Assembly (NCBI RefSeq): GCF_003334315.1 | Contig: NZ_QOWR01000014.1 | Strand: one strand, 5' to 3' | Source of the DNA: Escherichia coli | GTDB taxonomy: Bacteria > Pseudomonadota > Gammaproteobacteria > Enterobacterales > Enterobacteriaceae | Length of the DNA: 64,000 nt | Part shown: piece by piece, positions 37,309-42,071 of the stretch | How the letters are laid out: the number at the start of each line of letters is the position of its first letter | Position numbering within the stretch: the stretch's first letter is position 1 | Translations under genes and position numbers: made by a program | Notes under the pieces: generated by a model | Told to the model about the DNA's origin: nothing | What the model saw: only the letters and a program-made list of their open reading frames with translations | The model's database searches: none

Positions 37309-37625
37309 GGCCTGCCTCACTGTTTGACGGAAAAAATGTGTAAAACACATTAACCGTCCGATCTTGCTTAAGCAATTGGCAGCCAGAGACATAAACACGG
37401 GGTAATAAGAATAAACAGGAGGAAAGGTGAAAAGAAACGATAAAATCCTCCATTACAGAGGATTAAATTGATAATAAATCGGCTGAATCCCACAACTTAC
37501 AGCAATTTCTCTATTTTTTTAATTAATCCTAAAATAGAGAGCCCACACATTCAGAATAAAATTCTACATTCAATAAAAAATGCAGAATAAACCAGACATT
37601 CATGTCTGACCTATTCTGCAATCAG

Positions 37626-38570
37626 TTAGCGTTTGCAAATTGAGACTAATTGCTCTTCCATCCACTGATGGCCTTTATCGCGCCCGGCAGCTTCATGCCA
37701 GGAGAGATAACAGGTTCTGCTGTTTTGTTTTAACGGCAGCGGTAATACCTGTAATTCTAAGGATTCAGCGAACTCTTCAGCCAGCCAACGCGGCGCAATA
37801 GCGACCAAATGCGTTTGCGACACCACGCTAAGTACGCTCATCATTGCCATGCCCTGATACGCGATACTGGCTTGCTTATCTACCGTGTCATACCAAGGTT
37901 GACTAAATGACGCGAAACGATCGAGCGAAACCGCCGCATGTTGTTCGTTATAAACATCATGTTTCAGTAACGGGCCCTTAATTGTTGGATGATTTTTGCT
38001 GGCTACCAGCACCATTTCATCTTTAAATAATGGTACGCTGGTAAATTCAGGACGATGGAAGTCTTCATAACTAATCACAAACTCCGTTTCCTGATAACGC
38101 AGCTGATGTTCAGTGTTCTGATTTAATGAAGACTTGAACATAACATGTATATTTGGCGCAATCTGCTCAATGTGATTATAAATCTGCGAGGTCAGAATGC
38201 TGTCTAACGGGCTGCAAACACAAAGATGAAATACACGTTCACTACTCGCGGGTTCAAAACCTGAACCAGGCAATTCATTTTGTACTAGTTGCAATGCCTG
38301 GCGAACTGAACCAAAAAGTTGAAATGCGCGAGCAGTCGGTTGAATACCACGGCCATAACGAACAAAAAGCTCGTCATTAAACATCACCTTCAGGCGTGCA
38401 ACAGCGTTACTGACCGCAGGTTGCGACATACCCAGAACATGAGCGGCACGGGTAATGTTTTGCTCCTGCATCACGGCATCGAAAACGGTTAATAAGTTGA
38501 GATCGACCATGCGTAGCTGTGGCTTGCTTAACTCCGCCGTCTCTGAATGATCTGTTTGTACCTCTGGCAT
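37626..38570 (-). CDS. leuO: LysR-family global regulator LeuO, 314 aa
   Basis: ORF 37626..38654 contains [60 protein letters not shown]...; ATG at 38568-38570. Confidence 0.92.
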
Positions 38571-38654
38571 ACTTAACTCCACTGTCACACTTAACTCCCT
38601 TTCCCTTATTGGAATGCAGAGAAATAATCCTGAAGAATATGATTTATCATGCAT

Positions 38655-39130
38655 ATAAAATAAGAAAAAGGAAAATGAGTAAAATTAGGAAAACATAAAG
38701 ATACGGGTTCTGATAAAAACAGAATCCATTGCCGTGAAATGAGTCATTTACCACAGCATAATAATCCATAATGATTTTGTTGCGAAAACAATCTAATCAT
38801 AACTACCGCGAATACTCAATCATCTACAAAATGGATTAAATGTGCTTATTTAATAATTAATTTATATATTTAATGCATTAATTCTTAACATTAATTGATC
38901 AATAATATTCACCAAATCAATATCAAAAAAAATCGCAAAACATATAATTCAATACAAATCATCAGGATAGGTTTTGCAACGCGTGCATTTTGTCCCCTTT
39001 TTCCTCGTTGATTAGATGCAAAAATTTATGCTGAAATATGTCAACCGATGAAAAGCGTCGGTAGTTAAGCAGAAATTAATATCGCTTACTTTAACCACCG
39101 CAGCACAATTAGCTAATTTTACGGATGCAG
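38655..39130. promoter_or_regulatory. Strongly AT-rich leuO-leuL divergent control region (expected H-NS/LeuO-bound)
   Basis: Very AT-rich tracts read directly (e.g. taatttatatatttaatgcattaattcttaacattaattgatcaataatattc); H-NS/LeuO binding is from established knowledge of this locus. Confidence 0.6.
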
Positions 39131-39229
39131 AACTCACGCTGGCGGGACGTTTTTATTGCGTCAGGGTTGACATCCGTTTTTGTATCCAGTAACTCTAAAA
39201 GCATATCGCATTCATCTGGAGCTGATTTA

Positions 39230-39316
39230 ATGACTCACATCGTTCGCTTTATCGGTCTACTACTACTAAACGCATCTTCTTTGCGCGGTAGACGAGTGAG
39301 CGGCATCCAGCATTAA
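39230..39316 (+). CDS. leuL: leu operon leader peptide LeuL, 28 aa
   Basis: [28 protein letters not shown] with four consecutive rare CUA Leu codons (cta cta cta cta) followed by the attenuator hairpin. Confidence 0.92.
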
Positions 39317-39337
39317 GCCAGCACGCAGTCAAACAAA

Positions 39338-39366
39338 AAACCCGCGCCATTGCGCGGGTTTTTTTA
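39338..39366 (+). terminator. leu attenuator (rho-independent terminator)
   Basis: aaaaaa-cccgcgc-cattg-cgcgggttttttt, GC stem plus T-run between leuL and leuA. Confidence 0.9.
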
Positions 39367-39408
39367 TGCCCGAAGCGAGGCGCTCTAAAAGAGACAAGGA
39401 CCCAAACC

Positions 39409-42071
<2,663 letters not shown>

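Follow-up and report, generated by a model that had tools for sequence, protein, structure and literature searches.

The leuO-leuA control region of Escherichia coli: the leu attenuator and the AT-rich leuO spacer in a 64-kb stretch of DNA

Described relatives and the layout of the locus

The leader of the leu operon follows the same logic as the trpL, hisL, thrL, pheL and ilvL attenuators, in which a short open reading frame (ORF) containing several cognate codons in a row is combined with alternative hairpins and an intrinsic terminator. These other leaders differ from the leu leader in their control codons and in their sequences. For control by a rare codon, in this case CUA, the leu leader is the standard example, whereas thrL, for instance, uses a major codon (PMC1183508). 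The selective-charging theory predicts that CUA is the most sensitive of the leucine control codons (PMC1183508). A rise in read-through upon leucine starvation is known for the leu operons of both E. coli and Salmonella (Carter 1986 and Bartkus 1991, as cited in PMC1183508).

The neighboring leuO gene has relatives of another kind. Like leuO, bgl and proU have an AT-rich regulatory region at which a specific activator lifts the repression exerted by H-NS and StpA, and BglJ-RcsB is common to bgl and leuO (PMC3950696). Unlike bgl and proU, leuO is a silenced gene that itself encodes an antagonist of H-NS, and it stands back to back with an amino-acid operon that is controlled by attenuation. 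In E. coli, H-NS and StpA repress both leuO promoters, P1 and P2 (PMC3950696, PMC5025477). Occupancy by H-NS and derepression of leuO in hns (stpA) mutants are reported for K-12 in the same papers and for Salmonella in others (PMC6797219, PMC10981669). The proximal promoter, P2, is activated by BglJ-RcsB, which is bound about 57-70 bp upstream; LeuO inhibits this activation and is a negative autoregulator in E. coli (PMC3950696). Positive autoregulation by LeuO in this organism is negligible at steady state (PMC5025477).

A close described counterpart of the locus as a whole is the ilvIH-leuO-leuABCD region of Salmonella, which shares its genes, their order, the divergent arrangement and the AT-rich spacer with the E. 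coli locus. Salmonella leuO is kept silent by H-NS bound to the promoter region at a well-defined nucleation site, and invading or divergent transcription lifts this silencing (PMC6797219, PMC10981669). In an older model for Salmonella, the promoter relay, it is LeuO that stops H-NS from spreading (reviewed in PMC4264507), whereas in E. coli the relief comes from BglJ-RcsB and LeuO is mainly a negative autoregulator (PMC5025477, PMC3950696).

The window analyzed here, that is, the whole 64,000-nucleotide stretch of E. coli DNA, contains the same arrangement, with the gene order from left to right being ilvI (minus strand), leuO (minus strand), the spacer, leuA (plus strand) and leuB. The leuO coding sequence, for a LysR-type regulator, occupies 37626-38570 on the minus strand, and its ATG, the complement of 38568-38570, forms the left edge of the spacer; the gene is annotated as "transcriptional regulator LeuO" both in a strain that is 100% identical over the spacer and in K-12. 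On the plus strand, leuA (39409-40980), identified by its ORF and by annotation, encodes 2-isopropylmalate synthase and is the first structural gene 3' of the attenuator. The earlier note had delimited its region of interest as 38571-39408, and by both ORFs and annotation these coordinates are precisely the leuO-leuA spacer, 838 bp lying exactly between the ATG of leuO and the ATG of leuA at 39409.

The spacer is 100% identical to that of E. coli strain SY3626 (NZ_CP059283.1), where the RefSeq names at the locus are leuO, leuL ("leu operon leader peptide") and leuA; the layout in K-12 MG1655 is the same. Only four of the 838 bases differ from K-12, all of them substitutions within 38671-38774. 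Among complete E. coli genomes, 5,400 of 5,426 have a match to the spacer, and in 5,379 the match covers at least 80% of it. Therefore, we consider it almost certain that the region is the known divergent leuO/leuLABCD control region of E. coli, made up of two independent devices that have both been characterized before.

For comparison, 80 loci of other species were fetched from a genome collection with LeuO as the anchor. Both genes are present in 78 of the fetched loci, and in every one of these leuA is found upstream of leuO in divergent orientation. These 78 loci, together with one further relative of E. coli, make up the 79 usable loci referred to below.

The leuL leader and its attenuation switch

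The promoter of leuLABCD (39167-39195, plus strand), as read from the sequence, has a -35 element TTGACA at 39167-39172, a 17-nt spacer and a -10 element TAACTC at 39190-39195. The transcript would begin near 39202-39205. The -35 element is TTGACA in 68 of the 80 related sequences; the -10 element is TAACTC in Escherichia and TACCAC in most other genera. One of the conserved islands in the spacer (39189-39215, plus strand, 83% identity) runs from the -10 element to the transcript start. A consensus promoter scan of the region missed this promoter because the sixth base of its -10 element is not T, as the scanner required.

The leader peptide gene, leuL, is an ORF of 28 codons plus TAA at 39230-39316 on the plus strand, supported by annotation, and it is preceded by a Shine-Dalgarno sequence, GGAG (39218-39221), that lies 8 nt 5' of the ATG and is nearly invariant in an alignment of 75 distinct leaders. 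Codons 10-13 (39257-39268) are four consecutive CUA leucine codons. The claim of a 28-codon leader with four consecutive rare CUA codons is thus borne out, rarity included: CTA makes up 4.3% of the leucine codons in the 38 long ORFs of the window. With this codon usage, the chance of four CTA codons in a row is about 3e-6, and the (CTA)4 at leuL is the sole copy on either strand of the 64 kb. The leader was also said to be intact, and it is indeed identical to the leader of K-12 and to those of most E. coli genomes.

The Rfam covariance model for the leu leader, RF00512 (Leu_leader), matches 39216-39365 on the plus strand from end to end (model positions 1-148 of 148) with 145.8 bits and E = 1.6e-33, the curated gathering threshold being 50 bits. 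The leuL ORF lies inside this match. Models for the Thr, Phe and Trp leaders also match at 27.6, 25.7 and 19.8 bits, respectively, all below threshold and all on the palindromic terminator; these weak matches arise because the shape of the terminator is shared. A minus-strand match to the Leu_leader model, likewise below threshold, sits on the terminator as well. In comparison with the described leu leader of E. coli and Salmonella, the leader resembles it in all of the points tested, including a leader peptide identical to that of K-12 and a place directly 5' of leuA, and no difference of substance was found.

The intrinsic terminator, or attenuator, at 39335-39365 (plus strand) was recognized by folding and in the sequence, and its counterpart in the Rfam model is the terminal hairpin. 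The stem of 13 bp (39335-39347 with 39352-39364) has the GC core CCCGCGC/GCGCGGG and is capped by a loop of 4 nt; a run of seven T's occupies 39359-39365. The hairpin has a predicted energy of -20.2 kcal/mol, with z = -4.73 against shuffled sequences. A simple promoter and terminator scanner did not list this hairpin in the region. The earlier note had described a GC-rich hairpin with a T-run immediately after the leucine codons; the hairpin and the T-run are present, but "immediately" does not hold, as the terminator begins 66 nt past the last CUA and 18 nt past the stop codon.

The protector, preemptor and terminator scheme, reportedly due to Keller and Calvo (1979) and Wessler and Calvo (1981), is standard for the leu leader, and the predicted folds are consistent with it. 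Without a ribosome, the predicted fold of the leader consists of the terminator and one long hairpin (39216-39328), with an energy of -56.8 kcal/mol and z = -4.75. Within the long hairpin, the minimum-energy folds contain two inner protector hairpins (39255-39293, plus strand), in which GUCUACU (39255-39261) pairs with GGUAGAC (39287-39293) and CGCA (39271-39274) pairs with UGCG (39282-39285). At a pairing probability of 0.97, these helices would hold the sequence GCGCGG (39283-39288) when no ribosome is present. The competing helix, the anti-terminator or preemptor (39283-39347, plus strand), joins GCGCGG to CCGCGC at 39342-39347 in the 5' arm of the terminator.

Folding of the leader, which had been proposed as a check for alternative structures, predicts that the terminator and the anti-terminator are mutually exclusive and that the choice depends on the position of the ribosome. 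For a stalled ribosome, the part of the RNA that was folded extended from the 3' side of the ribosome to 39351, just before the 3' arm of the terminator. With the RNA ending there, the anti-terminator has a predicted pair probability of 0.97-0.98 when the ribosome sits on any of the four CUA codons, as opposed to 0.02 with the ribosome at the stop codon and 0.00 without a ribosome. The probability is near zero in these last two states because the small hairpins re-form and hold GCGCGG. Masking of the ribosome footprint alone was also tried with the A-site at 39263 and at 39266; RNA behind the ribosome then paired across to RNA ahead of it, and these folds were judged unrealistic.

When the complete RNA is folded with programs that do not model the order of synthesis, on which the attenuation choice depends, the terminator is preferred under every condition, even with a stalled ribosome (-31.7 versus -19.9 kcal/mol). 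Since the terminator wins at equilibrium, the switch would be set by the order of synthesis, and the predicted control is kinetic and not thermodynamic.

The following sequence of events can be proposed from these predictions. Transcription would begin at the leuL promoter, and the 28-codon leader would be translated while it is being made. When charged tRNA-Leu is plentiful, the ribosome would clear the four CUA codons and the protector hairpins would keep GCGCGG occupied; the terminator (39335-39364 plus the T7 run) would then form and transcription would halt before leuA. When the tRNA that reads CUA is poorly charged, the ribosome would stall on 39257-39268 and melt the protector hairpins. 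The freed GCGCGG would pair with CCGCGC (39342-39347) as it emerges, the 5' arm of the terminator would be taken, and RNA polymerase would read on into leuABCD.

Conservation of the leader among the Enterobacteriaceae is very high at just these elements. All 79 loci have a leader ORF in which three or four leucine codons follow one another, and together they encode 62 different leader peptides. As many as 311 of the 313 codons in these leucine runs are CUA, and the two exceptions are CTC codons in Atlantibacter. Two conserved islands on the plus strand emerge from the alignment, one from the CUA run to GCGCGG (39255-39291) and one at the terminator (39337-39375). In the alignment of the 75 distinct leaders, GCGCGGT (39283-39289) and the core of the terminator are invariant, and this holds even for the third, synonymous bases of the Arg codon (CGC) and the Gly codon (GGT); the flanking positions vary freely.

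All six pairs of the anti-terminator and all seven GC pairs of the terminator can form in 100% of the 75 leaders. The switch helices never vary, and so, they provide support from conservation and no evidence from covariation; over the whole structure, covariation in the leader alignment barely exceeds that in shuffles. The inner protector helix has one compensatory pair, which is U-A in 51 sequences and C-G in 13. By comparison, the outer helices of the minimum-energy fold of the E. coli leader are paired in just 65-73% of the cells of the alignment in the other species.

One could suppose that the use of CUA is maintained mainly by RNA structure, with the codons pairing to GGUAG and supplying the 5' side of the protector helix, and not by the scarcity of the tRNA that reads CUA. 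The helices in question are indeed well kept: 39255-39261 with 39287-39293 and 39271-39274 with 39282-39285 are paired in 98% and 97% of the cells, respectively, in the 75 leaders, the former at the predicted probability of 0.97 given above, and the CUA repeat would permit more than one pairing register. However, the former helix takes in a single full CUA codon, the first, and two bases from the next, and the third and fourth CUA codons, which are unpaired, are equally invariant. Furthermore, replacement of CUA by CUG in the Salmonella leader, as described for Carter et al. 1986 in PMC1183508, made derepression require more severe starvation, a change in leucine sensitivity of the kind that the tRNA-charging theory predicts. 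We regard this explanation as unlikely to be the main one. The two explanations are compatible, and RNA structure may help to keep the first one or two codons as CUA but cannot account for the last two.

Every test that was run therefore supports the leader being a ribosome-mediated transcription attenuator, with the folds standing as predictions. It has a leader ORF with a ribosome binding site, a run of leucine codons, an intrinsic terminator and a predicted alternative helix that depends on stalling. This reading is based on the Rfam match, the annotation, the ribosome-dependent folds and the conservation of the CUA codons and of the switch hexamers, all of which agree.

The AT-rich spacer and the silencing of leuO

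The leuO-proximal 570 bp of the spacer (38571-39140) are 68.9% AT (31.1% GC), compared with 47.2% AT for the window, a richness reached by just 0.05% of its 570-bp stretches. The earlier note had called these 570 bp extremely AT-rich, which is correct as an average; the composition is uneven, however, and the stretch that holds the leuL promoter (39051-39230) is only 59% AT. The main AT-rich tract is at 38600-38960 (74% AT) and, according to the literature, holds both the promoters of leuO and the silencing region that H-NS binds. Within it, 38830-38960 reaches 82% AT and 38836-38907 reaches 87.5% AT. A/T tracts of at least 4 number 17 in the 570 bp, about 3.3-fold the window mean of 5.1 (sd 2.8), and TpA steps number 54, about 2.3-fold the window value of 23.3 (sd 6.4). 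The A-tracts in 38657-38690 are spaced 7-9 bp apart and are not clearly helically phased.

These properties recur throughout the family. In the 79 other loci, the spacer is 747-941 bp long (median 814), and the median GC content of the tract is 32.7%, compared with 52.8% for the start of leuA; the tract is always at least 12 points below leuA. The sequence itself is poorly kept, with the identity to E. coli in 50-bp bins over 38671-39170 being 28-55% across the other species. The observation that composition and length are kept despite this turnover points to selection on composition.

Salmonella illustrates the pattern. The two subspecies in the comparison set have spacers of 820-827 bp with a GC minimum of 18-20% over 100 bp, and the spacer sequence has diverged from that of E. 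coli. Therefore, the 72-bp silencer and the LeuO sites mapped in Salmonella are not simply transferable to E. coli.

The sole block above 80% identity in the leuO-proximal spacer is a 16-bp island at 38641-38656 on the minus strand, GATTTATCATGCATAT, which lies 71-86 bp upstream of the leuO ATG and has a mean identity of 89% among 80 sequences from the Enterobacteriaceae. This island probably belongs to the proximal promoter of leuO or to its 5' leader.

Searches for individual sites in the tract were less informative. The consensus scan gave a weak sigma-70-like promoter candidate directed toward leuO, TTCGCA-17 nt-TATTAT at 38758-38786 on the minus strand, with 9 of 12 matches. The core motif for BglJ-RcsB, wwTTCykA, occurs at 38661-38668 and 38686-38693 on the minus strand and at 38880-38887 on the plus strand, and it is not discriminating, the window having 23 copies versus 25.7 expected. 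The H-NS high-affinity 10-mer, reportedly the motif of Lang et al. 2007, has two loose matches with two mismatches each, versus about 0.7 expected per 570 bp, and these are too weak to use.

One alternative is that the spacer has no role in silencing and that its composition reflects the drift toward A+T of non-coding DNA lying between divergent promoters, which need AT-rich elements. The low sequence identity across genera, the few and loose H-NS matches and the number of promoter-like sites in the tract (two from the consensus scan, no more than in shuffles) would all fit with such passive drift. Nonetheless, the tract falls in the lowest 0.05% of the 64 kb in GC content, and its 300-bp GC minimum, 0.247, is far below the 0.297 and 0.337 found in the other AT-rich spacers of the window. 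Drift would also have to account for low GC and a length of about 750-940 bp in 79 of 79 loci whose sequences have turned over. Moreover, published genetics show that leuO of E. coli is under repression by H-NS and StpA, and Salmonella has a defined nucleation site for H-NS (PMC3950696, PMC5025477, PMC6797219). Passive drift is, in our judgment, very improbable as the explanation.

As for the tract being a remnant of horizontally acquired DNA and not a native regulatory spacer, the GC content some 20 points below that of the flanking genes is a typical foreign signature and foreign DNA is the usual target of H-NS, but the idea can be set aside with near certainty because synteny is conserved, the order leuO-spacer-leuL-leuA being found in 79 of 79 loci with both genes, including those of Salmonella, Citrobacter, Enterobacter, Klebsiella and Kluyvera, and the arrangement being shared by 5,400 of the 5,426 E. 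coli genomes, and the annotated flanks in the identical strain have no mobile-element genes and no repeats.

The view of the AT-rich spacer as a region of H-NS nucleation and silencing is, therefore, well founded; it comes from published work, and what we confirm here is the composition. The further statement of the earlier note, that the silencing is relieved by LeuO, is a Salmonella result and holds weakly in E. coli, where the activator of P2 documented in the literature is BglJ-RcsB. In published experiments, H-NS and StpA coat the AT-rich spacer, which lies mainly at 38600-38960, and so keep leuO silent under laboratory conditions. The routes of relief that have been published are BglJ-RcsB acting at the proximal promoter in E. 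coli and, in Salmonella, transcription or supercoiling that comes from neighboring promoters and LeuO serving as a boundary to the spreading of H-NS.

Meaning for the locus and the family

Both of the devices in this region are textbook examples or are well published, and the 838 bp hold nothing novel. The use of the result is that it clears the locus: the annotation is correct, both elements are intact and there is no surprise within the 838 bp. In addition, the counts across species put numbers on how tight the hold on the leu attenuator switch is.

The contrast between a spacer that turns over in sequence and one that keeps its composition and length leads to one further suggestion. The spacer may have been selected as a physical device and not as a sequence, one that holds an H-NS filament responsive to the negative supercoiling generated by transcription of leuLABCD. 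We offer this as a tentative and somewhat doubtful idea. The idea of a supercoiling relay is not itself new, as it already exists for Salmonella leu-500/topA strains and for engineered cassettes. In wild-type cells, leucine starvation sensed by the attenuator could be relayed to the leuO promoter by way of supercoiling. What would be new, if true, is a relay from leu to leuO that operates naturally and throughout the family.

AT-rich tracts and the distribution of the spacer in E. coli

The spacer between the start codons of leuO (minus strand) and leuA, at window 38571-39408, is not the only AT-rich patch of the window. The ilvI-leuO spacer is likewise AT-rich, with a GC content of 27-34% across 37400-37650, and within it the annotation places a very short ORF, 'protein YabR', on the plus strand at 37427-37471. 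The region at about 826-1370 ranks second in AT-richness among the patches of the window, and its 300-bp GC minimum is 0.297.

When 5,426 complete E. coli genomes were searched with the spacer and with the leader, 26 of them had no match, and three of the matches found were plasmid-borne. These may represent laboratory leu deletions and leu-carrying plasmids, respectively. Spacer coverage is below 80% in a total of 21 of the 5,400 matching genomes. In E. coli FDAARGOS_943 (locus L003, NZ_CP065615.1; 3288-3985) an IS1A element occupies the expected place of leuO and the AT-rich tract. This site is the counterpart of window about 37626-39068, and all that is left adjoining ilvI is the counterpart of window 39069-39408, that is, the leuL promoter and leader.

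The leuL promoter and leader in other genera

The -10 hexamer of the leuL promoter (window 39190-39195) varies among the 80 Enterobacteriaceae sequences compared. Ten of these, from Escherichia, have TAACTC and 68 have TACCAC; the -35 hexamer, TTGACA, is common to both groups. Lineages lacking four CUA codons in the leader are few (loci L007, L065, L072, L081 and L082 of those fetched from other genomes). The run is three CUA codons long in the leader regions of Salmonella enterica subsp. diarizonae and of two Siccibacter species, and two Atlantibacter leaders read CUA CUA CUA CUC.

One fetched record, CACSKA010000010.1, is titled 'Chryseobacterium sp. 18061' and contains a typical Enterobacteriaceae leuO-leuL-leuA locus, with a LeuO identity of 79% and four CUA codons. 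This record is probably contaminated or mislabelled.

The leuO-proximal block and the leu terminator

A 16-bp block on the minus strand, GATTTATCATGCATAT (window 38641-38656), occupies the stretch 71-86 bp before the leuO start codon and is 89% conserved between genera in a spacer that otherwise evolves fast. This block may be the proximal leuO promoter's core.

At the other end of the spacer, the leu terminator (window 39334-39388, minus strand) forms an almost perfect palindrome carrying A6 and T7 on opposite sides, and its minus strand receives a sub-threshold score of 33.9 bits as a Leu_leader terminator in Rfam. Because of these two sequence properties, the leu terminator could terminate transcription in both directions.
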